Shown piece by piece: positions 7,696 to 64,000 of a DNA stretch of 64,000 nucleotides. How positions within the stretch are numbered: the stretch's first letter is position 1; the number at the start of each line of letters is the position of its first letter. The notes beneath the pieces were generated by a model that saw only the letters and a program-made list of their open reading frames with translations, was not told where the DNA came from and made no database searches. The position numbers were made by a program, and so were the translations under genes. The stretch is taken from IMG/VR virus record IMGVR_UViG_3300049856_000265, positions 21,555 through 85,554 of that record; one strand, written 5' to 3'. The DNA is from a virus.

Positions 7696-8025
7696 TTATT
7701 CCTTAACAGAAGTAGGTTTAAGAACAGTTTGGCGATGTTTACAATCGCTCTTACTGCAAGAATACAATAGTTTAAAACCCATGTCAATAATAAAGATAGT
7801 ACTTCCACATTTCACACACTTAGGTTTAGTCTCTTTAACAACTTCTGGTGTAGCGTAATTTACTGGATTATCTTTATCAGTTAGTTCGGAATACAAGGCT
7901 TCATTTTTACGGGTATTCTTTTCAGCTCTAGCTAGCTGCTTCTGAAGATGTTTTAACTGAGACTTTTGTTGGCGAATAATACCACGTAGGAATTCTACTT
8001 CACTGCGCTCTTTGGATTTTGACAA
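7696..8025 (-). CDS. coiled-coil plus zinc-ribbon protein
   Basis: CVKC...CSKSDC. Confidence 0.6.
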   Translation of the reverse strand: MSKSKERSEVEFLRGIIRQQKSQLKHLQKQLARAEKNTRKNEALYSELTDKDNPVNYATPEVVKETKPKCVKCGSTIFIIDMGFKLLYSCSKSDCKHRQTVLKPTSVKE

Positions 8026-9008: not shown

Positions 9009-10316
9009 TTAGGCTTTCCACTTGCCTTTAATGATATTAATAAGTTGTCTTGCTCCATTTTCGTAAACTAAACAATGAGTCTGCATCCAAGAACTAGGAC
9101 CCTTATTGTAGTTTAGTTTAAGATAAGAACTAGTTCCCATAACGTAGGCTTGTCTAAGAATCTCAGGACTGTGAGTATGGCCACTTACGGAAGCCAGAAA
9201 AGCTAATTCAAGAGAAGAGGCAGAACCTCGGCTACCATTAGGCCCCAAGTGCCCATGCATACCGCATTCAATTTGCTTGGAACTAATCTTAAAAGAATCC
9301 TCAGATTGAAGAAACTTTACCTTACTAAGCTTTTGATATTTACTAATTCCATATTGCAAAGGATCCTTGCCCTGAGCTTTAGCAAAGGCCAACTCAAGCC
9401 CAACAATATGATTTTGTGTATCCCTAAGGTAATTGCCCTCATCTAACCATTTATCCAAAAATTCATCATGATTACTCTTAACCACTATTACTTGTTTCTT
9501 TGGATATTGCTGTAGATTTGCGAGTTCAATGGCAGTAGCTTGAAGTTCTCCAGCTAGACTATTTTGAGCACCTAGCATAGCTTTCATTAGTAATTTACGA
9601 TCAATATGATGATTAACTGAAATTCCATCAAAAAGATCATGCATGATTAGATAATCAGGTTTAAGTAGTTTGAGCATTTCTATAGTACAAGTTCGGACTA
9701 CAGGATCAGTATATCCAACATGCCAATCTCCAGGAATTAAGGCAGCAAGCTTAGCTTCTGAAGTTTTTCCACTAGGATGATACTCAATTCCAAGATCTAC
9801 GAAACTTCCAGTTTTAGAAGCCTGAACTTGTCGATAATGGTAAAGCTTAGAACTCGTTACTTCTACTACAATTGCTCCAATAACTAGATCTAGATTGGCC
9901 ACAATAGATCGTTTAGAAGTACCTTTAAAAGGTTTACAGCATGTTCCGGGAGTCATAACTACCCTGGGGAGATTGCTACTAGGAGACGCTATGGACTTTA
10001 GGCGCTGCTTAGGTGAACCATAGATAACACTTCGTTCGTTACCGTGAATTCGCCCAAGCCCTGAAATAGGATCAGGTTGATCTGGGCTAATCGGCAAAGT
10101 AGAAAGACTTAGATTATTGTTAAGCAAGACATCTCTACCAATTAAATTACCATAGTTTAAGATACTTTCGTCTATCTCAGCTTTTTTAAAAAGTGTAGGA
10201 GTACTTATAAATACAACTTCGGCATGCATTCTTTTGCTATAGTTTTTAATAGCTTCTAGAAATCCTACATGACCCTCACAACCTGGAACAATAGTAGTTA
10301 TAATATAGCGTTTCAT
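9009..10316 (-). CDS. calcineurin-like metallophosphoesterase/nuclease, T5 A1-like
   Basis: GDWH, HDLFDG, SNHD, HGHLGPNGSRGS, GHTHSP. Confidence 0.75.
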   Translation of the reverse strand: MKRYIITTIVPGCEGHVGFLEAIKNYSKRMHAEVVFISTPTLFKKAEIDESILNYGNLIGRDVLLNNNLSLSTLPISPDQPDPISGLGRIHGNERSVIYGSPKQRLKSIASPSSNLPRVVMTPGTCCKPFKGTSKRSIVANLDLVIGAIVVEVTSSKLYHYRQVQASKTGSFVDLGIEYHPSGKTSEAKLAALIPGDWHVGYTDPVVRTCTIEMLKLLKPDYLIMHDLFDGISVNHHIDRKLLMKAMLGAQNSLAGELQATAIELANLQQYPKKQVIVVKSNHDEFLDKWLDEGNYLRDTQNHIVGLELAFAKAQGKDPLQYGISKYQKLSKVKFLQSEDSFKISSKQIECGMHGHLGPNGSRGSASSLELAFLASVSGHTHSPEILRQAYVMGTSSYLKLNYNKGPSSWMQTHCLVYENGARQLINIIKGKWKA

Positions 10317-10744
10317 TTTAGTCTCTTTCTTGTAATAGAGGATCTTCGACTATTTTCGGACATAGTTACCCATTCCATATTACTAAGTTTGTAGCCTTCA
10401 TCTGGATTAATCCTGTCAACAGATGGGGCCAACTTTCGATCATAGTTATTACAAATATATTGATTATATAAGAATACAAAGGAGGGGTGTTTTTCTGCCC
10501 AATCATAAAAGGTTTCTTTAGGAAGAAGCGATTTTCCTTCATAAAGATGATATTTCTTTTTTTGAATACCTTCTACTCTAGATTTCATATTACGATAAAG
10601 TCGCATAAGAAACCCTTTAGGTGTTTTTTCATATTCTTTATCTTTATTTGGATTAAGTGCTCTAGCCCGTTTATGATTATGAGGGCCGCAGAGCCCGTGA
10701 GAATGTGTCTTTTTACTACAACCTCGCTTTGAGCATATTCCCAT
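10313..10744 (-). CDS. HNH-type endonuclease with N-terminal Cys/His zinc motif
   Basis: CSKRGC...GLCGPH; PSVDRINPDEGYKLSNMEWVTMSEN. Confidence 0.7.
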   Translation of the reverse strand: MGICSKRGCSKKTHSHGLCGPHNHKRARALNPNKDKEYEKTPKGFLMRLYRNMKSRVEGIQKKKYHLYEGKSLLPKETFYDWAEKHPSFVFLYNQYICNNYDRKLAPSVDRINPDEGYKLSNMEWVTMSENSRRSSITRKRLK

Positions 10745-15832: not shown

Positions 15833-16462
15833 ATGAAGTTGAAATGCAATAAATGTAAAATAGAAAAACCGCTAACCATTGAATTCTTTAAAAAAGGTAA
15901 AACTAATAAGTACGGCTTTGCGCCTCAGTGTAAACTCTGTTTAAACGCTTATCAAAAAGCACATAGAACTAAAAATAAAACGACAGTAAATGCTAAGCGT
16001 CAAGAGCATTATAAAAAAATACCTGATAAAGTAAGAACTTGGGATCAAAAATCAAAAGCTAATCGCAAAAAACGAATGCAAAATGATTCAGAATATGCAG
16101 CTTTTATTCGGAAACAGAATCTGGATCGTAGAAATAAACGGTTTAAAAATGAACCTAGTTATAAAATAGGGCATGCTCTTAGAACACGCATTAGGAAAGT
16201 TCTTAAAAATAGTAAAAAAGTAGGATCAGCGGTTAAATATTTAGGATGTTCTTTAAATGAGCTTAAGCACCGTATAGAATCCCTATGGCAACCTGGTATG
16301 ACTTGGGAAAACTATACAATAGACGGTTGGCATATTGATCATATCAAACCACTATCTTCATTTAATCTAGAAGATCTAGAACAGTTTAAACAAGCTTGCC
16401 ATTATACTAATTTACAGCCCCTATGGGCTAAAGACAATTTAAGTAAATCTGATAAAGTTTGA
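15833..16462 (+). CDS. HNH homing endonuclease
   Basis: N-terminal CNKC..CKLC; WHIDHIKP...CHYTNLQPLWAKDNLSK. Confidence 0.85.
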   Translation: MKLKCNKCKIEKPLTIEFFKKGKTNKYGFAPQCKLCLNAYQKAHRTKNKTTVNAKRQEHYKKIPDKVRTWDQKSKANRKKRMQNDSEYAAFIRKQNLDRRNKRFKNEPSYKIGHALRTRIRKVLKNSKKVGSAVKYLGCSLNELKHRIESLWQPGMTWENYTIDGWHIDHIKPLSSFNLEDLEQFKQACHYTNLQPLWAKDNLSKSDKV

Positions 16463-16748: not shown

Positions 16749-17828
16749 ATGGATTACCAACTCGCAGTATTCGTGGGTCGTCTGCAACCCTGTCATATCA
16801 GTCATTTAGAAGCTATCCGTCAAGGATTAGCAATTGCTGATAAACTTCTTATCATTATCGGATCTTCTAACGCTGCTCCCAATATTAAAAATCCCTTCAG
16901 CTACGATCAGCGCAAAGCCATGATCTTGGCTGCACTCGACGAATCGGAACAAAAACGAGTAACTTTTGAAGGTGTGCGGGACTACTATTATAATGAGAAC
17001 AATTGGGTAACAGAAGTTCAGAATGCCGTAGCGCAACATTCTAAACCCATGGATCAAATCGTAATGTTAAAACATTATAAGGATTCAAGTTCTTATTATC
17101 TTAATCTTTTCCCTCAATGGGATGCTCACCTAATCCAAAACACTAAGGTCATGAATGCCACAGACATTCGTAAATCGTTGTTTGATCCAGATAATCTTAA
17201 AGAAGTTACAGAATGGCGTGATAAAGGGATTGATAATTCAGCCTATAAAGGTAATTTTCTAGATCGTACTAAAAAAATGCCATTAAATATAGAGCATTGG
17301 CTTATGCACAACTTTATAGGCACAGAAGCTCATTATGCTCTTATTAAAGAATATCAGTTTATAAAGGCGTATAAAGCATTATGGGCTAATTCCCCCTTTC
17401 CTCCTACTTTCGTGACGGCAGATGCTGTAGTTATTAAAAGCGGGCATATTTTGCTAATTCGTCGTAAGTTCGAACCTGGCAAGGGACTTTATGCTTTGCC
17501 TGGAGGTTTCATTAAACAAACTGAATCCATTGAACAGGCGGCTATTCGTGAGCTTAAGGAAGAAACTAGGATTGACATTCCAAAGCCTATATTGCATACT
17601 TGTATTAAGGATATGAAAGTATTTGATCATCCAGAACGAAGTTTAAGAGGCAGGACCGTAACTCATGCTTACTTGATCAATCTTGGACAAGGTGAGCTTC
17701 CTGCTATTAAAGCATCGGATGACGCCCTGGGTGCCCAATGGGTCCCAATCCTTAGTTTGGGTAAGCTTGAATCTGAATTCTTTGAAGATCATTTTTCAAT
17801 GATACATTATTTTGTAAGTAGGAGTTAA
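16749..17828 (+). CDS. nadM: bifunctional NMN adenylyltransferase / ADP-ribose pyrophosphatase (NadM-Nudix)
   Basis: GRLQPCHISH, IGSS...KNPF, NATDIR; Nudix box GGFIKQTESIEQAAIRELKEET. Confidence 0.92.
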   Translation: MDYQLAVFVGRLQPCHISHLEAIRQGLAIADKLLIIIGSSNAAPNIKNPFSYDQRKAMILAALDESEQKRVTFEGVRDYYYNENNWVTEVQNAVAQHSKPMDQIVMLKHYKDSSSYYLNLFPQWDAHLIQNTKVMNATDIRKSLFDPDNLKEVTEWRDKGIDNSAYKGNFLDRTKKMPLNIEHWLMHNFIGTEAHYALIKEYQFIKAYKALWANSPFPPTFVTADAVVIKSGHILLIRRKFEPGKGLYALPGGFIKQTESIEQAAIRELKEETRIDIPKPILHTCIKDMKVFDHPERSLRGRTVTHAYLINLGQGELPAIKASDDALGAQWVPILSLGKLESEFFEDHFSMIHYFVSRS

Positions 17829-18142: not shown

Positions 18143-18610
18143 ATGCTTAAATATGAAAAGATCTCCTTATTTGATGCGCCTAAAAATAGCCTAATCGTCC
18201 ATGCCGTTAATGCAGGAGGTAGATGGGGTTCAGGAATTGCTAAGGAGTTTAAAAAGCGTTATCCTAAAGCTGAGACCTATTATATGGCTAGATGTGCTTT
18301 TGGAAGTACTCTTGCTAGATTTGGATGTCACCATGTTGGGGAAGAACACCTCGTGGGATGGCTTGGCACTTCAGCAGGTTACGGGCATACTAAATCCCCA
18401 GAAGATGAAATCTTAATTTATACGACTTTAGCTATTCAAGAAATGCTAATTAGTATATCTAAAGAAGATCAAAACCTTCCACGTACTGTTTATTCTAATA
18501 AGTTCAATTCAGGACTTTTTGAAGTACCCTGGGAAAAGACGGAAAAGATCCTTAAAACTATTTTAAAACTCAATCCACATATTGAGTGGATTGTTTGTGA
18601 CCCGACATGA
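18143..18610 (+). CDS. macro domain protein (ADP-ribose binding/hydrolase)
   Basis: SLFD, IVHAVNAGGRWGSGIAKEFKKRYP, NSGLFEVPW. Confidence 0.85.
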   Translation: MLKYEKISLFDAPKNSLIVHAVNAGGRWGSGIAKEFKKRYPKAETYYMARCAFGSTLARFGCHHVGEEHLVGWLGTSAGYGHTKSPEDEILIYTTLAIQEMLISISKEDQNLPRTVYSNKFNSGLFEVPWEKTEKILKTILKLNPHIEWIVCDPT

Positions 18611-19170
18611 AAAGGCTTGAACGTCATATTAAAAATACAAGATGGACTCCTGTTAGTTTTGTAAGAAAAGATAAATACGATACTTATTGGCTAATGCGAT
18701 GCGAATGTGGTAAAGAAAAGATAGTTTTATATAAAAATTATAAACAAGGTAGATCTTTAAGTTGTGGTTGCTATAATAAAGAAGTAGTAACTGATCGTAA
18801 ATCTACACAGCAAAAGCCGTTTGGAGAAAGTGCATTAAATCACTTATTCTTAGTTTATAAAAAAGGAGCTAAAGAACGTAATCTTTCTTTTGAGTTAACT
18901 AAAGAGGAATTTAAGAAATTAACATCAGATATTTGCCATTTTTGTGGAGTAGAACCTAGACAATTAACAGGCAGAACTAAGTATACTCAAATTAATGGAG
19001 ATTATACTTATAATGGAATTGATAGATTAGATAATAAAGAAGGTTATACTATAGGTAATTGTGTAACTTGTTGTAAAAGATGTAATTATGCCAAGCACAG
19101 CAGTACTCAAGAAGAGTTTGAAACTTGGATTAAAAGACTTGTAGATTTTCAATTGAGAAAATCGAAATAA
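18607..19170 (+). CDS. HNH homing endonuclease
   Basis: WLMRCECG...SLSCGC; CHFCG; GIDRLDNKEGYTIGNCVTCCKRCN. Confidence 0.85.
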   Translation: MKRLERHIKNTRWTPVSFVRKDKYDTYWLMRCECGKEKIVLYKNYKQGRSLSCGCYNKEVVTDRKSTQQKPFGESALNHLFLVYKKGAKERNLSFELTKEEFKKLTSDICHFCGVEPRQLTGRTKYTQINGDYTYNGIDRLDNKEGYTIGNCVTCCKRCNYAKHSSTQEEFETWIKRLVDFQLRKSK

Positions 19171-19186: not shown

Positions 19187-20563
19187 ATGAATAGTTTTCT
19201 TAATAATTTAATACTTGATGTAGATTCTTATAAGTCGAGCCACTTCCTGCAGTACCCGCCGAATACTACTAAAGTCTTTTCGTATATCGAATCCCGTGGC
19301 GGTAAGTATGCCCAAACCGTTATGTTTGGACTTCAGCCTTTGCTTAAAAAGTTAGAGGTCGGCGTAACTAAAGAAAACGTCGAAGAAGCTAAGACTTTCT
19401 TTGAAGCACATGGCGAACCTTTCAACTACGATGGCTGGATGTATATTGTAAATGAACTTAAGGGTAAGCTTCCTATTAAGATCAAGGCAGCTCCTGAAGG
19501 TAGCGTAATCCCAACAGGCAATGCTTTGGTAACAGTTGAGAATACTGATCCTAAATGCTATTGGTTAACTTCCTGGCTTGAAACTCAATTGCTTAGAGTT
19601 TGGTATCCCATTACAGTTGCTACCCAATCTTATACTATTAAGAAGATCATCAAAAGCTACCTAGAAGCTACTTCAGATGATCCTGCAGCTGAGCTTCCTT
19701 TTAAGCTTCATGACTTTGGATCGCGTGGCGTATCCAGTGAAGAATCAGCAGCCCTTGGTGGCGCGGCACACCTTGTAAACTTCATGGGTTCTGATACAGT
19801 TGCTGGAGTAGTTCTGGCTAATCGAGTTTATAAATCTCCCATGTCTGGATTCTCTATTCCAGCTTCTGAGCACAGTTCTATTACCTCCTGGGGACGTGAT
19901 GGAGAGCTGGCAGCCTATCGCAATATGCTGAAGCAGTTCGCTAAGCCTGGAGCCCTTGTAGCCTGCGTATCGGATAGTTATGATCTTTATAATGCCGTTG
20001 AAAACCTGTGGGGCGGTGAACTTAAAAAAGACATCGAAGAATCAGGAGCTATCCTTATCGTGCGACCTGACAGCGGTAATCCAGTAGAAGTAGTTCTTAA
20101 GACTACTCAGCTTTTGGATAGCCGTTTTGGCAGTACCTACAATACCAAAGGCTTTAAAGTTCTTAATCATGTTAGAGTTATCCAAGGTGACGGGATCAAT
20201 GAAGAATCGATTCGCCAGATCCTTGAGGTTTTGAAAGCTAATGGCTATTCTGCAACCAATATCGCTTTCGGTATGGGCGGTGCGTTGCTTCAGCAAGTAA
20301 ATCGGGATACTCAGAAGTTTGCCATGAAGTGTAGTCATGCCGTAATCAATGGTAAGTCAGTTGAAGTGTACAAAGATCCTGTTACAGACCATGGTAAGAA
20401 GTCTAAGAAAGGCATGCTTGATCTAGTCTATCGTATGAATAAGTTTGAAACTATTCAAGGCGATAATGCTTGGGGTTCAGTACTTAAAGTAGTATTCCAA
20501 GATGGTAAAGTTACTAAAGAATATACTTTAGATGAAATCAGGGCCTTGTCAAATAAGTTTTAG
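19187..20563 (+). CDS. nadV: nicotinamide phosphoribosyltransferase (Nampt)
   Basis: DSYKSSH, LHDFGSRG, PASEHS, VSDSYD, RPDSG, QGDG, FGMGG, RDTQKFAMK. Confidence 0.95.
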   Translation: MNSFLNNLILDVDSYKSSHFLQYPPNTTKVFSYIESRGGKYAQTVMFGLQPLLKKLEVGVTKENVEEAKTFFEAHGEPFNYDGWMYIVNELKGKLPIKIKAAPEGSVIPTGNALVTVENTDPKCYWLTSWLETQLLRVWYPITVATQSYTIKKIIKSYLEATSDDPAAELPFKLHDFGSRGVSSEESAALGGAAHLVNFMGSDTVAGVVLANRVYKSPMSGFSIPASEHSSITSWGRDGELAAYRNMLKQFAKPGALVACVSDSYDLYNAVENLWGGELKKDIEESGAILIVRPDSGNPVEVVLKTTQLLDSRFGSTYNTKGFKVLNHVRVIQGDGINEESIRQILEVLKANGYSATNIAFGMGGALLQQVNRDTQKFAMKCSHAVINGKSVEVYKDPVTDHGKKSKKGMLDLVYRMNKFETIQGDNAWGSVLKVVFQDGKVTKEYTLDEIRALSNKF

Positions 20564-21363: not shown

Positions 21364-21712
21364 CAAAGTTGACTATAATACACCTGCCCATAAAGGGCAT
21401 TGGATTAGTGGATCCTTTTCTAATCCAGCTACTCCTGATGAGATTGCTCAAGCTGTAAAAGATGGTATGATCCCAATGAGCGAACTTAAGGACGGCCAAT
21501 GGTATGCTGGGCATTGCAGGAATGCTAGCAAGGCTCAATGGAAAGCCGAGGCTAAAGAGTTTAGCTATTGGCGTTATAAGTTTGGTAACTACTTTCTGGA
21601 TACGGCTAATCATATCGAAGAAGATAACGGATTTGATTGTTTTATCCCTGTAGCAGAAACTACACCTGAAACTAAGCATTTGGAGGCTAAAGATGAATCA
21701 GATAAAGGTTGA
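21356..21712 (+). CDS. hypothetical protein
   Basis: coupled ORF, GHCRNASKAQW motif. Confidence 0.6.
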   Translation: MSNKVDYNTPAHKGHWISGSFSNPATPDEIAQAVKDGMIPMSELKDGQWYAGHCRNASKAQWKAEAKEFSYWRYKFGNYFLDTANHIEEDNGFDCFIPVAETTPETKHLEAKDESDKG

Positions 21713-22385
21713 ACTTCAAGAATGGATGGGTTCAGATCGGCAAATTGCGGAAGCCGCTTGGACTAGTAGCCTCACCTTAGAATCCAAAGATACGAGGACT
21801 CAAGAAGACATAGCCCGAGTAGTTCAAATGCTAATAAAAGACAAACATGCTAGCCCTATTGAGGCTGTTGTCTTTAGATTTTGGATTAAAATGCCTATAT
21901 CAACGGATCGTCAGCATATGACTCACCGTATTGCTAGTCATAATGGTATGTCTGGACGTTATAGGACTATGCCTGCCGAGTTTCAAGTAGTTCCAGATGA
22001 CGTTAAAGATATTATTAATAAATTCCCAGCAAACTCCTTATGTAATTGGGTAGACGAGTATCAAGCTATTTGCAGATCTTCTAATGATTGGTATCAAAAT
22101 GTAGCGGCGGCGGCTAGGCCGTTAATTAGTACAGAACATATTACTAATACTGAATTTAAACGACTTCGTGAGTTCTTTCGTGGCGTACTACCTCAGAATA
22201 ATATTACAGAGCGCACTACAATTATGAATCTTCGTAGCTTTGCTAATTATCAAAAGCTTCGTAATTCAGAACATGCCCAACCTGAAATTAAGCAAGTAGC
22301 TGAACTTATGCTTAAAGCCGTAATAGAAGCTAATGTTTGTCCAGTTGCTATTGCAGCTTTGCAAACTAATGGCTGGAATATCTAA
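21693..22385 (+). CDS. thyX: flavin-dependent thymidylate synthase
   Basis: HASPIE, RQHMTHRIASHNGMSGRY, NLRSFANYQKLR, HAQPEI. Confidence 0.9.
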   Translation: MNQIKVELQEWMGSDRQIAEAAWTSSLTLESKDTRTQEDIARVVQMLIKDKHASPIEAVVFRFWIKMPISTDRQHMTHRIASHNGMSGRYRTMPAEFQVVPDDVKDIINKFPANSLCNWVDEYQAICRSSNDWYQNVAAAARPLISTEHITNTEFKRLREFFRGVLPQNNITERTTIMNLRSFANYQKLRNSEHAQPEIKQVAELMLKAVIEANVCPVAIAALQTNGWNI

Positions 22386-25945: not shown

Positions 25946-26191
25946 ATGAGTAAAGTAGGACAATCGATCAGGCTTAAGCAAAGCGAAACCAAGCCTTATG
26001 TAACTTTAGGCATCGCGACAACTGACGAAGGCTATGAACTTCGCAGGGTAACGGTAAGTGGTCTTGAAGTACAAGCTTTTAAAGTATTGCTTAAATCTAA
26101 AGAACGTGCGGAAGTAATGCAGCAATTGCAACTCGAGTTGAGTGCTTATATTATTAACTTTAATCGTGGTGAAACTAAGGAGACTAAATAA
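25946..26191 (+). CDS. hypothetical protein
   Basis: RBS AGGAG; upstream TTTACA-N17-TATCCT. Confidence 0.6.
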   Translation: MSKVGQSIRLKQSETKPYVTLGIATTDEGYELRRVTVSGLEVQAFKVLLKSKERAEVMQQLQLELSAYIINFNRGETKETK

Positions 26192-26685
26192 TGGAAGAAA
26201 TGTGGGAATCTATAAAAGATTATCCCGATTATCAAGTAAGTAATTCTGGTAAAGTTTATTCTCTAAAGAATAATATGGAATTAAAAGGTCAAGTTGAGCG
26301 TTCTGGGTATAGGTTAGTTAAGCTTTTTATTAATGGAAAAGCTAAATCTTGGATGATCCATCGACTTGTAGCCAATGCTTTTATGGATAACTGGAATAAT
26401 AAGTCTCAAGTCAATCATAAAGATGGAAATAAACAAAATAATTACTTTCTTAATCTAGAATGGGTTACGGCTTCTGAAAACCAATTGCATGCTATAAAAG
26501 AAGGTCTTGTACGGCATTGTGAAGGTGAAACGCACTTTAATTGTAAGCTTAGTTCTAATGATGATGCTGAAATTGCAGAATTATACAAAACGCAATCACA
26601 AGTACAAATTGCTAAAATGTATGAGATTTCTCAGTCTAGTGTTGGACGGGCTTTAAATCGTTATTATAAGAAAGGAATTAAATAA
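26191..26685 (+). CDS. NUMOD4-HNH homing endonuclease
   Basis: EMWESIKDYPDYQVSNSGKV, IHRLVANAF, VNHKDGNKQNN..NLEWVT, C-terminal HTH. Confidence 0.9.
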   Translation: MEEMWESIKDYPDYQVSNSGKVYSLKNNMELKGQVERSGYRLVKLFINGKAKSWMIHRLVANAFMDNWNNKSQVNHKDGNKQNNYFLNLEWVTASENQLHAIKEGLVRHCEGETHFNCKLSSNDDAEIAELYKTQSQVQIAKMYEISQSSVGRALNRYYKKGIK

Positions 26686-43796: not shown

Positions 43797-44981
43797 CTAG
43801 CTAGCGATACGGCCTACTAAATGGCCGCTAGCTTTGTCATATACTTCACAAAACTGTTTTTCATCCGATTCAAGCTCGAGATATTCAATAGCCGTCATTT
43901 CGTTGCCGTCATAGTCTACGAAATAGAACATAGAGTCAAGTCTATGTTTAGGCACCGGATATCCGTTATCGTCTAGCAAGTCAAATGGTTCTTTAGGGAT
44001 ATCGTTGCTATCCTCAATATCTCTAATCGTTTGAATATCGCTATGGACTTCTTTAGTCGAGTCTTGAACTACTTTGAGCGCATTTTCGACCGCTACGCCA
44101 TTATTACGACTAGGCGTCGTTGGATAGGTTTTTAGATTACTTCTCCAATCACTTGGATAAGTATCATCCATATAATCATTTTGCCATGCGCTGCTACCAT
44201 AAGAAGCTTCGAATTGTGCTTGGCTGTAATAACTTTCTTTACGTGGAATAAACCCCTCTTGTTTAATCAATTCCCCATTTCGGTTAAAGGTCAAAGCCAT
44301 ATTGTCTTTAATAGCGTAGATTTTAGTATGAGTCAAGCCCCCTTCTTTAAGAATCGACTTCAATTGATCGGCATTAGTTCCAAAGGCCATAGATTCAATG
44401 CTAGGTATCCAACAAGCGTTAAGGTTAGCCGTAGCGTCTTTAATGACCATAAGCTCGCCTGTTACCTTATTGAGCGCACCAATAGCATAATAACCCGCTA
44501 GATTCTGCACAATCCCTTCTAGACCTTGCTCCGTCAAGTAATGCAATACATGTTCGGAATCATTAGTAGTGCGCTGCTTATATTCTTCGCCCATGTTTTG
44601 AACAATCCCATTATGTATAACACTCCAAAGTGAACTATTCAATGGATGCGTATTATTAAGGCTAACTTGATTAGTACTAATCCTAGCGTGAATAAGTAAA
44701 CCGCCGTTCATGATCTCAGGAATCTTGCCAAAAGCGTTAGATTCCCAAGCTTCGAAGATCGCCTTAAAAGAATCAGGCACCGCGCCGTTATTAAAGAATC
44801 GATTTTCAAAGTATTCAGGATCTAAGCACCGTTCGCCTACGAATTTATTACCGTTTAGCATAGACCAACCAAAACCGTCGTTATCCGATTTACCCATAAT
44901 CTTAGCCGATGCTGTAAGTAGTTTACTCAATTGTTTATGTTTAAGTTTCGCTGTATTGGTTAGAATCATCAATTTACACAT
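43797..44981 (-). CDS. class II (Ntn) glutamine amidotransferase
   Basis: N-terminal MC, DGFG, HARIST, NTHP, HNGIV, DSE. Confidence 0.85.
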   Translation of the reverse strand: MCKLMILTNTAKLKHKQLSKLLTASAKIMGKSDNDGFGWSMLNGNKFVGERCLDPEYFENRFFNNGAVPDSFKAIFEAWESNAFGKIPEIMNGGLLIHARISTNQVSLNNTHPLNSSLWSVIHNGIVQNMGEEYKQRTTNDSEHVLHYLTEQGLEGIVQNLAGYYAIGALNKVTGELMVIKDATANLNACWIPSIESMAFGTNADQLKSILKEGGLTHTKIYAIKDNMALTFNRNGELIKQEGFIPRKESYYSQAQFEASYGSSAWQNDYMDDTYPSDWRSNLKTYPTTPSRNNGVAVENALKVVQDSTKEVHSDIQTIRDIEDSNDIPKEPFDLLDDNGYPVPKHRLDSMFYFVDYDGNEMTAIEYLELESDEKQFCEVYDKASGHLVGRIAS

Positions 44982-46576
44982 TATGCCGCCTCACTATCTT
45001 CATGGTTTTGATCAAATGCCGCTTGTTCAGGAGTCAAGACGTTAATTCCCGCCGACTCTCCAAGCAAAGCATTATCAGGATTAAACTTCTTAATTCGCTC
45101 CATAATATAAGTTACAAGTGTCGCGCTCCAATTAAGCTTAGCAGCGTAACTTTCAATAGTCAAATCGGGCAAATTGCCTTCACAATGAGCTACTGAATAA
45201 AGAATCTTAATCCAATGTTTAATCTTAGTAAAGTTAATAGTTCCAGAATGAAGTCTAATCTCAATGGTCTTAAACTTGCTAAAAGCCTCAATATCGTTAA
45301 TGCAGCTATAGCGAGTATCTCGACCGCCTTCAGTTGAGGTACTGCCTACGTCTGAGCGGCAATAGGTGTTATTGATTCTGGACTTAGGCACCATGGCCTT
45401 GAGCATCGGCAATACTTTAGCTAGCTTATTGACGCTAATGGATGGCCGCCTTTCATGGGTTCTAAAGTCCAAGTGAACATGAAGACCGCATGACTTATTG
45501 ACTTTAGCTCCAACGTCTTTAAGCAGTTTGCAAAACTTCTCAAGATTAGACAAATCGTTAACATTAGTCAAGATGCGAGCTTCAAGAGGAATCTCGTCAA
45601 CGTCGTCGTCACAATCAATTGAGCCGTCTTCGCCTAGATTAATGCCTTTAATGCGTAATTCAGTGCATTTTTTAGTAAAGAAGTCCTTAGCAGCATCAAA
45701 ACCGCATTTAGCCTCTTCACATTCACTATGATCGCCATTTTCACAATGGCCACAATCGCCGCATGATCTAGGCGGAAAACCGTCTCGCGGCATAAAGAAT
45801 TCAATTTCGACGCCGATAGCTTCACCTTTAGGGATAGCTTGTGGAGTCTTAGGATTAGATACGTTGAAAGTCCTAGCGAAGAGTTTCCAAATATGCTCCG
45901 TTTGACGATTGAAGATTGAACCGTCCAAGCCTTGACGTACTTCTTTAGAAGAATCGCGCATATTACTCAAAGCCCTAATCTTGCGCTTTTGTTTATCCAA
46001 GCCTTGCGCCGTATAGTCTAGAGCGTCTTGCGTATTACCTCTTTGGATGAGCTTTAGTACGTTGCGTTTTTGCTTAGTCTTAAGACTGCTAGTATCGAAA
46101 ATCAATTTGCCATCTTCAAATTTAAGTAGTTTAGTCATGTCTATTTTCTCCTTTATAGGTTTAGTGCCATGAATGAATTTATTATCCAAAACGATATCTA
46201 GGAATTCCATTGGTTGCGACATTTGGCCGGTATACGTTATAGTTCCTATTTGCGTTAAGTCTAAGTTAAACAATGAACTATTTGGACTTGGACTGAGGAG
46301 CATAGGACGCATTTCGTTTCGACCTAAGTCTATAGCAGTCCGTCTAATAGCCTCTAAAGTCAAAGTATTGCCAATATCGTTAACTTCACTTTCAGCTAGC
46401 CTAGCCTCTAATTCTAAAGCTTCGTTATAAAATAATGAATCTCTAAGCCATCGGACTAGTTCGGTGCCCGTAGCCGTCATTTGAATAACAGCGCTATCTA
46501 CCCATTCGCGAGCGCATATATCGGAAACCATAAAAGGAATTCTTTGATTATTTATCTCATAGTAAATATGAGGCAT
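44981..46576 (-). CDS. putative amidoligase (COOH-NH2 ligase) with N-terminal extension
   Basis: IGVEIE, DGSI, E, VNKSCGLHVH, RYSCIN, TIEIRLHSGT. Confidence 0.8.
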   Translation of the reverse strand: MPHIYYEINNQRIPFMVSDICAREWVDSAVIQMTATGTELVRWLRDSLFYNEALELEARLAESEVNDIGNTLTLEAIRRTAIDLGRNEMRPMLLSPSPNSSLFNLDLTQIGTITYTGQMSQPMEFLDIVLDNKFIHGTKPIKEKIDMTKLLKFEDGKLIFDTSSLKTKQKRNVLKLIQRGNTQDALDYTAQGLDKQKRKIRALSNMRDSSKEVRQGLDGSIFNRQTEHIWKLFARTFNVSNPKTPQAIPKGEAIGVEIEFFMPRDGFPPRSCGDCGHCENGDHSECEEAKCGFDAAKDFFTKKCTELRIKGINLGEDGSIDCDDDVDEIPLEARILTNVNDLSNLEKFCKLLKDVGAKVNKSCGLHVHLDFRTHERRPSISVNKLAKVLPMLKAMVPKSRINNTYCRSDVGSTSTEGGRDTRYSCINDIEAFSKFKTIEIRLHSGTINFTKIKHWIKILYSVAHCEGNLPDLTIESYAAKLNWSATLVTYIMERIKKFNPDNALLGESAGINVLTPEQAAFDQNHEDSEAA

Positions 46577-48834: not shown

Positions 48835-49020
48835 TTAAGCAGCTAATCTCATCATTTGGAACATCTCGTTCATGTTTACTTGCGCGATATCCCTCAATCG
48901 TTGGATGTTCTCAAAGTCCGCATCGACCAATTTAGCCCTAAGTAGCTCGACCTTAGTTCCTTGATACATCGTAAAGAACACAATAACGTTACCTTCATAG
49001 TAGAATTTAGGCTTATTCAT
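48835..49020 (-). CDS. hypothetical early protein
   Basis: RBS GAGGG; sigma54-like motif ~40 nt upstream. Confidence 0.55.
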   Translation of the reverse strand: MNKPKFYYEGNVIVFFTMYQGTKVELLRAKLVDADFENIQRLRDIAQVNMNEMFQMMRLAA

Positions 49021-49116
49021 AATATTATCCCTCTTCTTTATTGTTTATATCAATATCTATCAATAATCGTACCGTGAATATCTAGTGCAATATTGATCTA
49101 ATCGTTAGACTATCAG

Positions 49117-49386
49117 TTAAGCAGCTGTATTCCTTAGACGCTTGTTTAGCATGAACCGCTGTAGACTATCCATGCTATCTAAAGATAGGATGATATCAGC
49201 TAGAGTGTGTACCTTTTTACTCTTAGATACCTTTTTAGCCCGTTTAGCCTTATCGGTATAGCTCATTACGCCGCCTATAAGCTTCACGTACTGCTTAAGG
49301 CTAAGCTCATCGACTAGGCGGTTATAGATAGTCTTAGTATCTACTTGAGTGATCTTAAGGGCGTATAGGGCGTTAAGGTCGATCAT
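49117..49386 (-). CDS. hypothetical early protein
   Basis: strong RBS AGGAGG; upstream TTGACC-N17-TAACCT. Confidence 0.65.
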   Translation of the reverse strand: MIDLNALYALKITQVDTKTIYNRLVDELSLKQYVKLIGGVMSYTDKAKRAKKVSKSKKVHTLADIILSLDSMDSLQRFMLNKRLRNTAA

Positions 49387-49586
49387 AATTACCTCCTAAG
49401 GTATCAGGTTACTAAACTAGTTACCAGTGGTCAAGAGAATAGTATAGCCTAGGCGCATCAAACGACTAATCATATCACTAGGCAAAGCCTTGGTGTATAT
49501 CCTACGCCCAATGAAGACCATCTTATAGGTCTTACCCTTGAGTGTGAATTCCCTTGTCTCGGTTAGATTGGTCATACTAGGTATGT

Positions 49587-49813
49587 TGCATGCGCCATGC
49601 CATAAGCTAACCTTTGGATATCATAGGATCGTTAAGTAATCATGGTGTCGAACTTCTATACAGGGTATTGATATCATTGAGGAATAGATTAGACACTGCA
49701 CTAAAGATTGTCACTTGCGGCGTAGTGCCCGCGCATCGTATAATGATCGCGCGTACGCGTAGCAAGAAGCATGCCTGGCATAGTTCTTGCAGGGGGTTGC
49801 AATAGTCGTGCCA
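49587..49813. promoter_or_regulatory. cluster of sigma54-type -24/-12 motifs
   Basis: TGGCACGACTATTGCA (-, 49798-49813), TGGCATAGTTCTTGCA (+, 49776-49791), AGGCATGCTTCTTGCT (-, 49761-49776), TGGCATGGCGCATGCA (-, 49587-49602). Confidence 0.65.
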
Positions 49814-49976
49814 GGGGGGGGTGCCTTAACTTTGGACAACAATTACACATGTATGCTGACACATATAGCCTATTGCCATTCTTAACTTGAGTAACTTTAC
49901 CAACGATCTCGCCAAGTAAAGCTTCCCCTAGTTTTCTTGCCTTGACTTTTTGAGTAACTTCGGTTAATCTAAAAGT

Positions 49977-50129
49977 ATGACTGTACTTGAACTTATTACG
50001 CAACTAATTGAACTAGAAGAGCAACATCCTGGTAAGACTGTAAAAGGACAACTGAACTTTGGCCCAGCTCCTAATGAACTAATAGGTGGTCTTTTGCTTT
50101 GGGAGTTTCCTAATGATGATATTGAGTAA
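49977..50129 (+). CDS. small hypothetical protein (50 aa, leaderless)
   Basis: TTGACT-N17-TAATCT-N6-ATG; MTVLELITQLIELEEQHPG. Confidence 0.6.
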   Translation: MTVLELITQLIELEEQHPGKTVKGQLNFGPAPNELIGGLLLWEFPNDDIE

Positions 50130-50340
50130 CTTTATACTACTCGCGGGCCTGGCATCGCCCGATCCTCGTACCTTAGTCTGCACGATAGCCTACTCTTCAT
50201 ACTATGCTGGTTGTATTGAACAACATTACGGTAAGGGTCTAGATGAGCAAGCTATCCAAAAGGTACTTAAAGAATGTAAAGCTAAGGCTCAAGGATTTAC
50301 TAAAGCTTTAGACGTGTGTAAAGATGCTAAGTTCGATTAG
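50113..50340 (+). CDS. small exported Cys-containing protein (approximate start)
   Basis: hydrophobic N-terminus, four Cys. Confidence 0.45.
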   Translation: MMILSNFILLAGLASPDPRTLVCTIAYSSYYAGCIEQHYGKGLDEQAIQKVLKECKAKAQGFTKALDVCKDAKFD

Positions 50341-52122: not shown

Positions 52123-53112
52123 CTAATCATTAAAACTACTACCAATTCCCATACTCTTTTGATTACTAAATCCCTTAGTAGCACGGGACGATTGCGCAAA
52201 GAGCTGAAGCATTGCTTCTTCTAGCGTAATATCGTAAAGAGCTGAACGAATAACTACTTCTTTTACATGGGCCACGCTAAAGTTATTATATTTATTATCT
52301 TGGATGGCCAGTTTAGAGGACTCAGTAGCCTTACCTTGACTGAAGAACTCAAGAAATTTAGCGCGAAACTCAGCAGAAGGGCGCTTAACTTCCATCACAT
52401 CGTCAAAACGTTGAGGACGATTAGTCAAGTTTTCAAGAAAGTTCTCTGGATAGTTAGTAGTAGCTAGAATCATTGTAGGAATTGTGAAAGTCTTCTCGAC
52501 GTTATCCAAAAGAGACAAAAGACTGGACTCAGAATAGCGTCTGCCGCCATCTGCATTTTCAACTCCACCCAAATCTTCAATGATAAGGAAAAGTTTAGTA
52601 ACTTTATTCGTAGCATATTCAAATCTTTTAATAAAATCCTTAACATGACGTGCTTCATACTTATCGCTAGGCCAGATCACGATACAAGTATCTTCTTTTT
52701 GAGCATACTCATTACAAACTTTAGAGATAGTTTGGCTCTTACCACATCCTGGTGCGCCATAAAGCAAAATAGCACGTTTAGGATCCATGTTGTAGAGTTT
52801 ATAAACATCAAGTTTATTAAAGAATGTATTAATTTTATTAGAAATATCCTTAGTTGAGATGTATTCTTCAAGGATATTAGCTGAAGTAAAGCCTGATTGC
52901 TGAAGAACCATCTTTTGATTTTCAATTGCAATAGTAAAAATTCCAGCACTTACTGAATAGGTTTCGACAATATGCGTAGGAGCTTCGACGAACTCCCATT
53001 GTACAAAACGATCATCGCTTGTAAAAAGACTAAAGTCTGATTCGGTGATCTTATCGCCTTCTTTTACATTTTTAATATCCGTAACTGATTTCACTTTAAA
53101 GAAGTTTGACAT
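52123..53112 (-). CDS. AAA+ ATPase (classical AAA clade)
   Basis: LLYGAPGCGKS, IIEDL, ATTNYPE, NRPQRFD. Confidence 0.9.
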   Translation of the reverse strand: MSNFFKVKSVTDIKNVKEGDKITESDFSLFTSDDRFVQWEFVEAPTHIVETYSVSAGIFTIAIENQKMVLQQSGFTSANILEEYISTKDISNKINTFFNKLDVYKLYNMDPKRAILLYGAPGCGKSQTISKVCNEYAQKEDTCIVIWPSDKYEARHVKDFIKRFEYATNKVTKLFLIIEDLGGVENADGGRRYSESSLLSLLDNVEKTFTIPTMILATTNYPENFLENLTNRPQRFDDVMEVKRPSAEFRAKFLEFFSQGKATESSKLAIQDNKYNNFSVAHVKEVVIRSALYDITLEEAMLQLFAQSSRATKGFSNQKSMGIGSSFND

Positions 53113-53114
53113 AA

Positions 53115-53327
53115 TTAAGACTGTCTCCACTTTTCATACATTACCCATTTAGTAACAAAATCTACAAGATCTAGCCAAGTATTATTAGGATCAGCTAACC
53201 ATTTTAGATAGGTCTTAACTAAGAGAGTTTGAGTTCCTCTTTCAACTATAGTAGGATACATCTGACAAACCACTGAAAGTTCTACCTTAAGAAGCGGATC
53301 AGCTCCTCTATCCCTTGGCTTGCTCAT
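53115..53327 (-). CDS. hypothetical protein
   Basis: coupled ORF. Confidence 0.5.
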   Translation of the reverse strand: MSKPRDRGADPLLKVELSVVCQMYPTIVERGTQTLLVKTYLKWLADPNNTWLDLVDFVTKWVMYEKWRQS

Positions 53328-53481
53328 TCTTGGCTTTCAAATGAGCTTCGTGAGCTTCTTGTTCTGTTCGAAAATATCCAAGATGCTTGAGTTTACCTTC
53401 TACACGTAGAACTGCCTTGTACTTTTTGATACGACGGTTGGCTTCGAAGCTTACTCCTGTAAGATATTTAGGCTTGTTCAT
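53308..53481 (-). CDS. stand-alone AP2-domain protein (57 aa, not in ORF track)
   Basis: MNKPKYLTGVSFEANRRIKKYKAVLRVEGKLKHLGYFRTEQEAHEAH; ATGA overlap with dcd. Confidence 0.7.
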   Translation of the reverse strand: MNKPKYLTGVSFEANRRIKKYKAVLRVEGKLKHLGYFRTEQEAHEAHLKAKNEQAKG

Positions 53482-61219: not shown

Positions 61220-64000
61220 ATGGCTATAGCTCCAGGTTCATTAGGCTTTCAACAACTTACGACTAGTCCTGCAGCTCCGCCTGTTGGATATTGTATTCTT
61301 TATTCCAAAACAGATAATGTTGTTTATCTTAAAGATTCATCTAATATTGAAATAGCATTAGGTTCAGCTAGTTCTATTACTTCTCTAACAGGTGAAGCTA
61401 CTGGAACAGGCCCTGGAGCTACTGTAGTCACTCTTTCAAACTCTGCTATAATTGGTAAAGTCTTAACTGGCTTTGCAACGGGACCTAATTCTACAGTTTT
61501 GGCCACTGACACTATTCTTCAAGCTATCCAAAAACTACAAGCTCAGGTTTCAGCTACAGTAGGAGCTGCCATTACAGCCCTAACTGGTGATGTTTCAGCT
61601 ACTGGACCTGGATCCTCTAGCTCTACTGTAAATACGGTAGGTGGAAAGTCTGCTGCTAGTATTGCAACTAGTGTAAATGATACTATTGCAGCTACTTCAG
61701 CAAATACAGCTAGTACCATTGTAAAAAGAGACGCTTCGGGTAATTTTGCAGCTAATAACATTACTGCTAGTTTGTTAGGTAATGCAACAACCGCTACTAC
61801 TGCTACTAATTTTACAGGATCTTTACTTGGTGACGTAACAGGAACTCAATCAGCAACCGTAGTTGCTTTAGTCGGTGGTAAAACCGCTGCTGCAGTGGCT
61901 ACTAGTGTAAATGATACTCAAGCTGCTACAGATTCTAATACAGCCTCTACTATCGTTAAAAGAGACGCTTCAGGTAACTTTGCTGCCAACCTCATTACAG
62001 CAGCTCTTTCTGGTAATGCCACGACTTCAACATCCTTTATTGGATCTCTTGTTGGTGACGTAACGGGTACTCAAGGTGCTACGGTAGTTTCTTTTGTAGG
62101 GACTTCTAGTGCTGCTAATGTACATCTTGCTGAACTTGCAGCTAATGCTGCGACTTCTACCAATACAGCTAGCACTATCATAAAACGTGATGCTTCTGGA
62201 GACTTTGCCGCAGGTACAATCACGGCAGATCTTGTTGGAAATGTAACTGGTAACGTCAGCGGAACAGCCGCTAATGTCACCGGAATCGTTACAATTGCCC
62301 ATGGTGGTACCAATTCAGCTACAGCTCTTAATAATAATCGAATAATTAAGTCAGCAGTCGGAGCTATTATAGAAGCCGCTGCGATTACGGCTGCTAGAGC
62401 GTTGATTTCAGATGCTAATGGTATTCCTACCCACTCTATAACCACTTCTACAGAATTGAGTTATGTTTCAGGTGTTACTTCTGCCATCCAAACTCAACTT
62501 AATGCTATTACTGGATCTGGTATTACTTCTCTAACGGGAGACGTGACAGCTACTGGACCTGGAGCCGCCGCCGCAACTGTAGCAGCAATTCAAGGAACTA
62601 TGGTTTCTGGAACAACTGGCTCTGGTAATGTTGCATTTTCTAATGCTCCAACTTTTACTGGACTGCTAAGCGGCAGTAGTGCTAGTTTTTCTAGTACAGT
62701 TACTGCTTCCAATCTCTCAGGAACTAATACTGGAGATGTAACGATAACTGATACAGATTCTATTGATATTACTTTGGCTGGACAGAATATTACAGCAGAT
62801 CTTAAACTATCTTCAGATGTGGCAGATGCTGGTAATATTAAAGCTACAACGACCGTACATTCTGGAGCAGGGGCCGGATTGCATGTAGAATTACCTTATG
62901 GAACTCCTGTCCAAATTGGAACGTCAAACTTTATAGGAGCAGCTTCTAGTTTTGCTCTTTCTGATCATGTTCATGCTCATGGAAATCAAACTAGCGCTAC
63001 TTTGCATGCTGCAGCTACAGCTATAGCAAACGGTTTCATGACTTCTAGTGATTTCTCTAAACTAGCAGCTGCGACAGCCGCCAATACGGTAAGCACAATT
63101 GTAATGCGTGATGGTTCTGGCAATTTTAGTGCTGGAACAATTACTGCATCTTTAAGCGGTAATGCAACAACAGCTACTACTGCTACTTTAGCAGGAAATG
63201 TCACTGGAATTGTAGCTATAGCAAACGGCGGTACTAACTCATCTGCGGCGTTAAGTAATAATAGAGTTATGCAATCCTCTGGTGGAGCCCTTGTCGAAGC
63301 TGCAGCCATTACAGCAGCTAGGGCACTTATCTCCGATGCGAATGGAATCCCTACTCATAGCGCAGTTACTAGTACAGAACTTGGATATCTTTCTGGAGTT
63401 ACCTCAGCTATCCAAACTCAAATAAATGGAAAACAAGCTACAGGTAATTACATTACAGCATTGACTGGAGATGTAACGGCTAGTGGACCTGGATCTTCGG
63501 CAGCTACTATTGCAGCTAATGCGGTAAGTAATTCTAAATTAGCTCAAATGCCAGCTAATACTATTAAAGGTAACAATACTGGAGCTACTGCAAATGCTCT
63601 AGATTTAACTACAGCTCAAGTTAATACACTTCTTGGAACGGTTACTTCTGTTGCAGCTAGCTCACCTCTTCAAAGTTCAGGCGGGGCTACTCCAACAGTA
63701 TCTTTTGCTAATCAAACAGCAAATACCGTATTATCAGGACCTACTACGGGTGCCGCAGCGGCTCCTACTTTCCGCGCTCTAGTTAGAGCCGATATTCCAA
63801 ATTATACAGTTGTAACTAAAACGGCAAATTACACAATTCTTTCAACTGATGATACTATCTTTGTAGACACTTCAGGTGGAGCTTTTACTCTTACTTTGCC
63901 TTCTCCAACAGCCCTATCTGGTAAGATCTTTAGGATTATTGACACTGCTGGTACTCTTCAGTCTAACAATCTTACATTAGCTAGAAGTGCATCTGAAAAG
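61220..64000 (+). CDS. long tail fibre / adhesin, runs off the window end (missing from ORF track)
   Basis: open frame from ATG 61220 (MAIAPGSLGFQQL); repeated ITALTGDV.ATGPG, NTASTIVKRDASGNF.A..ITA and GGTNS..ALNNNR...ITAARALISDANGIP modules. Confidence 0.85.
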   Translation, partial: MAIAPGSLGFQQLTTSPAAPPVGYCILYSKTDNVVYLKDSSNIEIALGSASSITSLTGEATGTGPGATVVTLSNSAIIGKVLTGFATGPNSTVLATDTILQAIQKLQAQVSATVGAAITALTGDVSATGPGSSSSTVNTVGGKSAASIATSVNDTIAATSANTASTIVKRDASGNFAANNITASLLGNATTATTATNFTGSLLGDVTGTQSATVVALVGGKTAAAVATSVNDTQAATDSNTASTIVKRDASGNFAANLITAALSGNATTSTSFIGSLVGDVTGTQGATVVSFVGTSSAANVHLAELAANAATSTNTASTIIKRDASGDFAAGTITADLVGNVTGNVSGTAANVTGIVTIAHGGTNSATALNNNRIIKSAVGAIIEAAAITAARALISDANGIPTHSITTSTELSYVSGVTSAIQTQLNAITGSGITSLTGDVTATGPGAAAATVAAIQGTMVSGTTGSGNVAFSNAPTFTGLLSGSSASFSSTVTASNLSGTNTGDVTITDTDSIDITLAGQNITADLKLSSDVADAGNIKATTTVHSGAGAGLHVELPYGTPVQIGTSNFIGAASSFALSDHVHAHGNQTSATLHAAATAIANGFMTSSDFSKLAAATAANTVSTIVMRDGSGNFSAGTITASLSGNATTATTATLAGNVTGIVAIANGGTNSSAALSNNRVMQSSGGALVEAAAITAARALISDANGIPTHSAVTSTELGYLSGVTSAIQTQINGKQATGNYITALTGDVTASGPGSSAATIAANAVSNSKLAQMPANTIKGNNTGATANALDLTTAQVNTLLGTVTSVAASSPLQSSGGATPTVSFANQTANTVLSGPTTGAAAAPTFRALVRADIPNYTVVTKTANYTILSTDDTIFVDTSGGAFTLTLPSPTALSGKIFRIIDTAGTLQSNNLTLARSASEK

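Follow-up and report, generated by a model that had tools for sequence, protein, structure and literature searches.

What would a phage gain from packing several sigma-54-type promoter motifs into the gap where its two gene arms diverge? The question is raised by a 64,000-nt stretch of viral DNA (hereafter the window), which comprises bases 21555-85554 of the virus genome IMGVR_UViG_3300049856_000265, a source record of 85,554 bp that is rated complete by CheckV. A preliminary description of this stretch, made from the sequence alone, had listed five motifs that resemble the -24/-12 elements of sigma-54 (RpoN) promoters and had suggested that the phage uses or titrates host sigma-54. Alone among bacterial transcription routes, the sigma-54 route is kept strictly silent until an activator driven by ATP acts on it. 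The comparative tests reported here all fit sigma-54-type sites that the phage would use or titrate, and they support that suggestion in part; the fifth motif is degenerate. We give an even chance to the reading that the four strong motifs (sites a-d, Table 1) are docking sites for the host sigma-54 holoenzyme, which together would form a compact, two-way and activator-dependent promoter battery.

Clustered sigma-54-type sites at a strand switch

When the sequence was read again, the coordinates and strands of all five motifs proved correct. Sites a, b, c and d each satisfy the spacing rule of a sigma-54 site, with a -24 GG and a -12 GC placed 10 bp apart inside TGGCAC-N5-TTGCW, and each carries a purine (G or A) right after TGGCAY. 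Together they span 227 bp (49587-49813), with a packing of 15-22 bp within the array formed by c, b and a. Sites c and b stand back to back and have one T in common; b and a face each other, their starts 22 bp apart. The imperfect inverted repeat that had been noticed in the middle two motifs, c and b, is borne out by a complementarity of 86%, and four of the five motifs are indeed aimed at the leftward small-gene array, all of them on the minus strand. The fifth motif fared less well. Its position upstream of a small gene holds, but its match to the consensus does not: with the GC absent it fails the GG/GC spacing rule, its score lies under every threshold applied, and alone it is indistinguishable from chance. 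Most likely, an internal promoter has decayed here or is weak.

Sites were scored with a home-made weighted consensus score (maximum 21), with a cut-off of 19 for strong sites. Across the 85,554-bp genome, four of the six sites scoring at least 19 fall within 49587-49813, including the sole perfect one. In 100 dinucleotide shuffles of the genome, clustered sites averaged 0.04 and never exceeded 2. The comparison of RpoN-consensus scores with shuffled controls, which the preliminary description had put forward as a check, places the cluster far above the shuffles, and the clustering is non-random. Over the whole window, GGCAY-N6-TGC gives 8 matches against 2.54 expected (8 were reached in 1 of 100 shuffles), and TGGCAYN5TTGCW at up to one mismatch gives 6 against 4.53 expected (6 were reached in 33 of 100). 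These counts are only mildly high, and it is the placement that stands out: 49587-49813 holds four of the eight GGCAY-N6-TGC matches and both exact consensus matches of the window.

Table 1. Features of the control region, in window coordinates; scores are out of 21.
Feature	Sequence	Position	Strand	Remarks
Site a	TGGCACGACTATTGCA	49798-49813	-	0 mismatches; score 21.0; sole perfect extended-consensus match in the genome
Site b	TGGCATAGTTCTTGCA	49776-49791	+	Exact consensus, 0 mismatches; score 19.5
Site c	AGGCATGCTTCTTGCT	49761-49776	-	1 mismatch; score 19.0
Site d (solo)	TGGCATGGCGCATGCA	49587-49602	-	1 mismatch; score 19.0; nearest to the first leftward gene
Fifth, degenerate site	CGGTACGATTATTGAT	49059-49074	-	Lacks the -12 GC; 39 nt ahead of the 61-aa gene (48835-49020)
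First leftward ORF (open reading frame), 52 aa		49417-49575	-	No Shine-Dalgarno; ATG at 49575
Gap between solo site and array, 158 bp		49603-49760		Inverted repeat and palindrome
G8 run		49814-49821	+	Abuts site a; sole G/C run of at least 7 in the 85.5-kb genome
Repeat, three copies	TTGAGTAACTT(T/C)	49887-49899, 49950-49962, 50122-50134	+	Ahead of rightward genes
First rightward ORF, 50 aa		49977-50129	+	No family match

Conservation in related phages

Relatives were recovered through the terminase, which is encoded 7 kb from the array, and their selection was independent of the motif. Scans of viral contigs for close relatives with the amidoligase or the terminase protein singly had returned nothing; an alignment of 30 metagenomic terminase homologues later succeeded and fetched 70 viral-contig loci (840,814 bp). 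These loci contain 57 sites scoring at least 19, and 32 of them are clustered, in eight loci (L002, L005, L006, L023, L024, L030, L044 and L053). In the reversed sequence of the 70 loci there were 2 sites, neither in a cluster; 20 shuffles averaged 15.8 sites, of which 0.3 were clustered. Because many of the loci stop short of the control region, the absence of a cluster from such a locus means little.

In five whole related genomes, all 11 exact matches to TGGCAYN5TTGCW lie at one place per genome, as clusters in G002-G005 and as a lone site in G001. Among ten complete or near-complete genomes (93-100% by CheckV, including the present phage), six have at least two clustered exact or near-exact sites. 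Conservation in related phages had been named beforehand as a test, and clusters of TGGCAY-N5-TTGCW are kept there in the same control region. What is kept is the -24/-12 elements, and not the spacers or the palindrome, which is the reverse of the outcome set down as contradicting sigma-54 (a palindrome retained while the GG-N10-GC spacing is lost).

The relatives, whose ORFs were called mechanically, share a recurring layout, in which a solo site by the first leftward gene is followed by a gap, a dense array in two orientations and a run of G or C. Solo sites occur at the equivalent place in L002 (647), L001 (370), L005 (367) and L006 (107). In L001 and L002 the solo site is aimed at the first ORF of the leftward arm; in L023, where the control region has the opposite orientation, the target is the first rightward ORF. 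Adjacent sites in plus-then-minus order are 18-22 bp apart, start to start, in all 11 cases, 7 of them with 18 bp, and the remaining orientations are spread across 15-59 bp. The face-to-face pair is the preferred layout of the family.

Small genes near the array are barely conserved across the 70 loci. An orthologue of the 61-aa gene (48835-49020), with 46% identity, comes immediately after the single consensus site of L001, and in a pairwise alignment of the two upstream regions the fifth motif lands on the L001 site. A correspondence between the two is suggestive only, as this is a two-sequence alignment of AT-rich DNA.

Several contigs end inside or beside an array or its G run (L005 1-700, L006 1-300, L024 1-40 and L046 1), and G035 has near-duplicate arrays at both contig ends. 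Such ends could reflect breakage of assemblies at repeats or poly-G, or nearness to a true genome end.

Face-to-face modules in other viruses and in bacteria

We searched viral contigs for a face-to-face module, defined as TGGCAYN5TTGCW followed, after 2-6 nt, by its mirror image, and found it in at least 124 viral contig loci, on contigs of 4 to 480 kb. Among the viral matches listed there are 159 distinct modules with 318 arms. Within 596 Gb of bacterial genomes the module occurs in 45 places, for an estimated 3 or so by chance at even base composition; several of the 45 are repeats within single metagenome-assembled genomes (MAGs), and the places span many phyla. The size of the viral collection in bases is not given, and the viral and bacterial counts therefore stand side by side without a fold enrichment.

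At position 7, which the search pattern did not fix, 98% of the 318 arms among the matches listed carry a purine (G 61%, A 37%). In the mapped, ChIP-supported intergenic sigma-54 sites of Salmonella that are printed in PMC3844500, the same position is a purine in 29 of 29 (19 G, 10 A, counted by eye). The spacers of the two arms, in the 159 modules among the matches listed, agree at 1.38 of 5 letters, against 1.76 +/- 0.08 for shuffled partners. Since the arm spacers are less alike than shuffled partners, hairpin formation is not the conserved property.

Across 80 viral loci among the matches listed, the largest family of flanking proteins covers 20. The same ten letters in many unrelated gene neighbourhoods argue for a universal host factor and not for a phage-specific DNA-binding protein. 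By crude ORF calls, the module lies between divergent genes in 19 of 44 scorable viral loci, compared with 63 of 300 background gene pairs, and between convergent genes in 6 of the 44. In a 161-kb phage, ten of the 12 exact sites are spread across 3.7 kb of small genes. No site cluster was found in Pelagibacter phage EXVC031P, Bacteriophage sp. ctz7E20 or Roseobacter phage CRP-804, three named phages that were reached through an ArdC-like gene adjoining the array in another phage group.

Some of these loci have features of their own. In an unrelated 36-kb phage (G016; L247 1680-1920), the sigma-54 pair precedes, in this order, two 43-bp direct repeats, a G8 run, four CTTAGGTCTA repeats and near-consensus sigma-70 promoters, in what is a composite control or origin-like region. 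Within bacteria, the module is present on several contigs, many of them short, or at contig ends, in Leptospira yanagawae (L203, L233), in one Saprospiraceae MAG (L197, L217, L224, L234, L235) and in one Deltaproteobacteria MAG (L204, L211, L216, L232). These multi-contig bacterial modules may be phage or repeat elements that were binned with the genome.

Absence of sigma-54 and activator genes

Searches for the sigma-54 DNA-binding domain (Sigma54_DBD) gave no match in this phage genome or in 47 other records, which comprise family members and array bearers. The activator domain (Sigma54_activat, PF00158) is absent from the whole 85.5-kb genome at E <= 1; the earlier remark that the window encodes no enhancer-binding protein is thus extended to the entire genome. 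In the 47 other records no hit to PF00158 exceeds the family cut-off, and the single weak one, of 15 bits, is in G007, a genome without an exact site.

A classic AAA ATPase of 335 aa (PF00004, E 1.4e-11) is encoded 2.3 kb from the array, at 52123-53130 on the minus strand. It has counterparts in L001 (50% identical) and in L002 (30% identical, encoded on the rightward strand at roughly 1 kb downstream from the array). We set this protein aside as a candidate for the missing activator: it belongs to PF00004 and not to PF00158, and of the 70 loci only L001 and L002 have it near the control region. A search of five array-bearing records for a T7-type RNA polymerase (PF00940) found none, but control genomes were equally blank and the result carries little weight.

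Organisation of the control region

From left to right, the control region consists of the leftward small genes, site d, the gap, the array c-b-a, the G8 run, three TTGAGTAACTT copies and the rightward genes from 49977. The distance from site d to the ATG (49575) of the 52-aa leftward ORF is exactly 11 nt; with a start at the customary sigma-54 offset, the transcript would begin at the start codon and be a leaderless mRNA. The same leaderless site-to-ATG layout is found in G026. The 52-aa ORF itself matches no Pfam or PHROG family and has zero homologues among the 70 family loci.

Two symmetrical elements lie in the gap (49603-49760): an inverted repeat, GACA...TGTC, with its arms at 49692-49695 and 49709-49712, and an imperfect palindrome, rich in GC, that surrounds TATAAT (49739-49744). 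Palindromes of the form GACA-N2-3-TGTC, candidate activator sites, also occur in the equivalent gaps of L002, L005 and G001, and the 158-bp gap could contain an activator or bending site. A consensus scan found no sigma-70-like promoter matching at least 10 of 12 positions in 49603-49976.

Runs of G or C are a further recurring element. G8-G12 or C9 runs lie 44-72 bp from sites in L005 (731), L006 (319), L030 (3425) and L044 (4395); in the family as a whole, the runs stand 0-72 bp from sigma-54-type sites and often have T(A)G next to them. Across 78 other viral loci, the density of G/C runs of at least 6 is 1.33/kb within 200 bp of the sites and 0.36/kb elsewhere, a 3.7-fold difference. Such runs are also prone to slippage and to breaking assemblies.

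The window has six plus-strand copies of TTGAGTAACT(T), at 11497, 24460, 25907, 49888, 49951 and 50123. Three copies lie to the right of the array, and copies stand just upstream of the genes at 24487 and 25946. GAGTAAC occupies the equivalent position in relatives, with four copies in L002 and two in G001, and other subgroups carry their own repeated words at that place (CTATAGAAAC in L005 and L006, TTTAGTAACA in L030). The TTGAGTAACTT/TTGAGTAACT repeat is a candidate for a second, phage-specific promoter-like motif. A word search to the right of the array for a conserved non-coding RNA returned, as family-wide words, only the sigma-54 elements and the G run.

A proposed promoter battery or a possible sigma-54 trap

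If the sites act as promoters, the battery would occupy the gene-free gap where the leftward small-gene arm and the rightward arm diverge. Site d would direct a leftward start at about 49576, at the ATG of the first leftward gene, and thus a leaderless mRNA. Sites a and c would add upstream leftward starts at about 49787 and 49750, and site b would give a rightward start at about 49802, with a transcript passing through the G8 run. Since neighbouring sites overlap or abut by the estimated polymerase footprint, one bound polymerase would shut out the next, and each binding event would also set the direction. The sigma-54 holoenzyme remains closed until it is remodelled by an AAA+ activator. As the phage has no activator gene, an activator supplied by the host, or some other kind of phage factor, would be needed for firing, which would make the activity of these genes follow the host's condition. 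Distance and orientation appear to fit promoters for site d, for the solo sites of L001, L002 and L023 and for the site of G026. The promoter reading is also favoured by the modules found between divergent genes, by the lack of a sigma-70-like promoter in 49603-49976, by the site before the orthologous gene of L001 and by the precedent of YuA. The sequences directly show the motifs, their clustering, geometry and conservation, and the missing sigma-54 and activator genes; from these we infer that sigma-54 binds, that the sites are active and exclude one another, where transcripts begin and where the activator comes from.

Several points weigh against this reading. The reading presupposes a host with rpoN and a suitable activator, and an activator gene is lacking in the phage and, above the cut-off, in the 47 other records. 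For a lytic phage, it would be awkward to leave its first genes to a conditional host activator. At a packing of 15-22 bp, most sites cannot be occupied simultaneously, and three or four promoters for a single operon look excessive, when G001, the complete genome most closely related, gets by with a single site; of the ten family genomes, three have one exact site (G001, G006 and G008) and one has none (G007). The rightward arm has a repeated motif of its own, TTGAGTAACTT, and site b may be dispensable. The leaderless layout is seen in two genomes only, and there is no general start-codon peak at that distance, in a count swamped by the ATG inside the partner motif. The sequencing runs that contain the region are DNA contig runs, with no RNA run among them. 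Moreover, Pseudomonas phage YuA, discussed below, is without a consensus cluster, so the precedent that it provides does not extend to arrays.

A rather unlikely alternative, which we rank second, is that the array is a sigma-54 trap, binding the factor or its holoenzyme in order to hold it and not to fire. On replicating phage DNA, its high-affinity sites would deplete a scarce factor and shut down the sigma-54-dependent responses of the host, or silent closed complexes would occlude or insulate neighbouring promoters. The missing activator gene, in this phage and above the cut-off in the 47 other records, would be expected of such a device. The sites exceed in number what one operon needs and face both directions, and the G/C runs at or beside the sites, in some cases between the two -12 elements, would resist melting of the DNA. 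The frequency of the module, with at least 124 viral loci against 45 loci in 596 Gb of bacterial genomes, points the same way. Sigma-54 holoenzyme is reported to sit stably and transcriptionally inactive on sites under all conditions, but roadblock repression by the bound holoenzyme was tested in E. coli and not found (PMC4591121). Overlapping sites would, moreover, make a poor sink for holoenzyme, as neighbours spaced by 15-22 bp would be covered by one polymerase. The single site retained in G001 is in promoter position before an orthologous gene, solo sites stand at promoter distance from genes, and the exact sites that the 161-kb phage spreads over its small genes are likewise promoter-like. 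The promoter reading therefore ranks first and the trap second, and the two are not mutually exclusive.

Two further explanations dispense with sigma-54. That the sites are iterons or operators for another phage or host protein, for instance at a replication origin, a packaging site or a partition site, is quite improbable. Units of 16 bp in both orientations within a gene-free gap at a strand switch would suit such a role, as would the AT-rich stretch that adjoins in L002 and the other direct repeats of G016 and G001. The contigs of three relatives (L005, L006 and L024) end at or near the array, but repeats and poly-G runs also make assemblies end there. No protein family is common to the array neighbourhoods; the same ten letters recur with the same spacing in many gene neighbourhoods (largest flanking family 20 of 80 among the matches listed), and the likeness to sigma-54 sites reaches position 7, which the search left free. 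An iteron-type origin in particular was rejected, with repeats that alternate in orientation, no initiator gene beside the array and a motif present in at least 124 contigs with mostly unrelated neighbours.

It is harder still to believe that the inverted repeats act through nucleic-acid structure, as a hairpin terminator, an attenuator or a cruciform. The pairs c/b and b/a are imperfect inverted repeats, and b pairs with a in the minimum-energy fold, yet the spacers of the two arms of a pair show less complementarity than do shuffled partners. The fold z-scores of the array are -1.8 and -2.1, with unremarkable flanks, a T run is absent after the inverted repeats, and only 6 of the 44 scorable loci have the module between convergent genes. 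A hairpin terminator or structured RNA was rejected on the spacer complementarity below shuffled expectation, these z-scores and the lack of an Rfam family in the window.

The phage genome and its sources

The window encodes a terminase, a portal protein, a family A DNA polymerase, a primase-helicase, a ribonucleotide reductase, salvage enzymes for nicotinamide adenine dinucleotide (NAD) and many small uncharacterised ORFs, and several phage genes have strong AGGAGG ribosome-binding sites. By terminase and DNA polymerase, the cultured relatives are distant, with 23-29% identity to Flavobacterium, Vibrio and Silvanigrella phages. A nucleotide search of 50,697 phage records with the array region gave zero matches, and Rfam and tRNA scans of the whole window found nothing. 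Two sequencing runs contain the region, both of DNA, one from a freshwater-sediment and one from a freshwater metagenome, and one of the two is probably the source; these contig runs are uninformative on ends, starts and variants. The last ORF (window 61220-64000), structural-protein-like and 927 aa long so far, runs past the end of the record, which means that the linear 'complete' record is cut within a gene.

Beyond the control region, an amidoligase (PF12224) adjoins a glutamine amidotransferase, and the window also encodes a deoxynucleoside monophosphate (dNMP) kinase, a thymidylate-synthase-like protein and a PHROG 'DNA transfer protein' (window 43797-46576, 7995-8657, 21693-22385 and 9009-10316). 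As a set, these genes seem to resemble the clusters for thymidine hypermodification in phages like M6, which is related to YuA. The NAD+ salvage genes (window 16749-17828 and 19187-20563) encode a nicotinamide phosphoribosyltransferase and a cytidylyltransferase/Nudix (NadR-like) protein. At least five genes resemble homing endonucleases of the HNH or endonuclease VII type (window 10313-10744, 15833-16462, 18607-19170, 26191-26685 and 53308-53481), and they sit dispersed among the replication and nucleotide-metabolism genes.

Comparison with known systems

An uncultured phage family and at least 124 viral contig loci bear consensus sigma-54 sites in fixed pairs. The present freshwater-sediment phage, itself uncultured, probably exploits a transcription route of its host, by borrowing or by trapping it, that has hardly been studied in phages. 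With the sites as promoters, part of the phage programme would be conditional on a host signal; according to the activator involved, this could be RNA damage, stress on the envelope or the nitrogen status. With the sites as traps, they would represent a DNA-based disarming of a host sigma factor. More broadly, we tentatively propose, as a less favoured possibility, that phages of many lineages carry a face-to-face sigma-54 device, often G/C-clamped, that captures host polymerase and is either fired by an unrecognised type of activator or never fired, silencing host responses. Such a capture device, if true, would be a phage-specific use of enhancer-dependent transcription without a described counterpart.

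The signal itself is ordinary. Like bacterial sigma-54 promoters of the glnAp2, pspA and nifH type, the phage sites have the -24 GG, the -12 GC, the spacing, the flanking letters and the purine after TGGCAY. For this promoter family, the requirement for an AAA+ activator is established (PMC3844500, PMC4591121). The carrier, the density, the fixed paired geometry and the attached G run are not ordinary. Unlike bacterial sigma-54 promoters, the phage sites follow one another at 15-22 bp and alternate in orientation, with a G/C run attached and no upstream activator site recognised, on a phage that carries no sigma-54 or activator gene, and they form face-to-face pairs in 11 of 11 cases in the family. 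In bacterial genomes, by contrast, the face-to-face module is rare (45 loci in 596 Gb).

In the literature we found no description of arrays of sigma-54 sites or of face-to-face pairs in phage genomes; the nearest case is YuA (Yuavirus), the sole phage reported to depend on sigma-54 that we found. According to two reports, YuA is virulent, has no RNA polymerase of its own and has part of its programme served by host sigma-54 (PMC5053324, PMC10914365), and one sigma-54-like promoter was mapped in it by ONT-cappable-seq (PMC10914365). Its genome contains no exact consensus site or cluster, with 27 matches at up to two mismatches against 49 for a control pattern. A single sigma-54-like promoter is reported in YuA; the present phage has an array.

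There is also a likeness to pseudo-symmetrical sigma-70 bidirectional promoters, at which, according to the abstract of PMC12825309, polymerase binds in either orientation and one event excludes the other. The paired sigma-54 sites, which lie between divergent genes, would by analogy follow the same logic, with mutual exclusion here deduced from the overlap of the sites. However, the sigma factor and the elements are different: the sigma-70 promoters share one -10 element, whereas in the phage two full -24/-12 sites lie against each other. Finally, chromatin immunoprecipitation in E. coli and Salmonella has revealed high-affinity sigma-54 sites that hold the holoenzyme without firing (PMC4591121, PMC3844500). 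Those silent sites are scattered, single and mostly intragenic, whereas the phage sites are clustered, intergenic, conserved across the family and fixed in their geometry.

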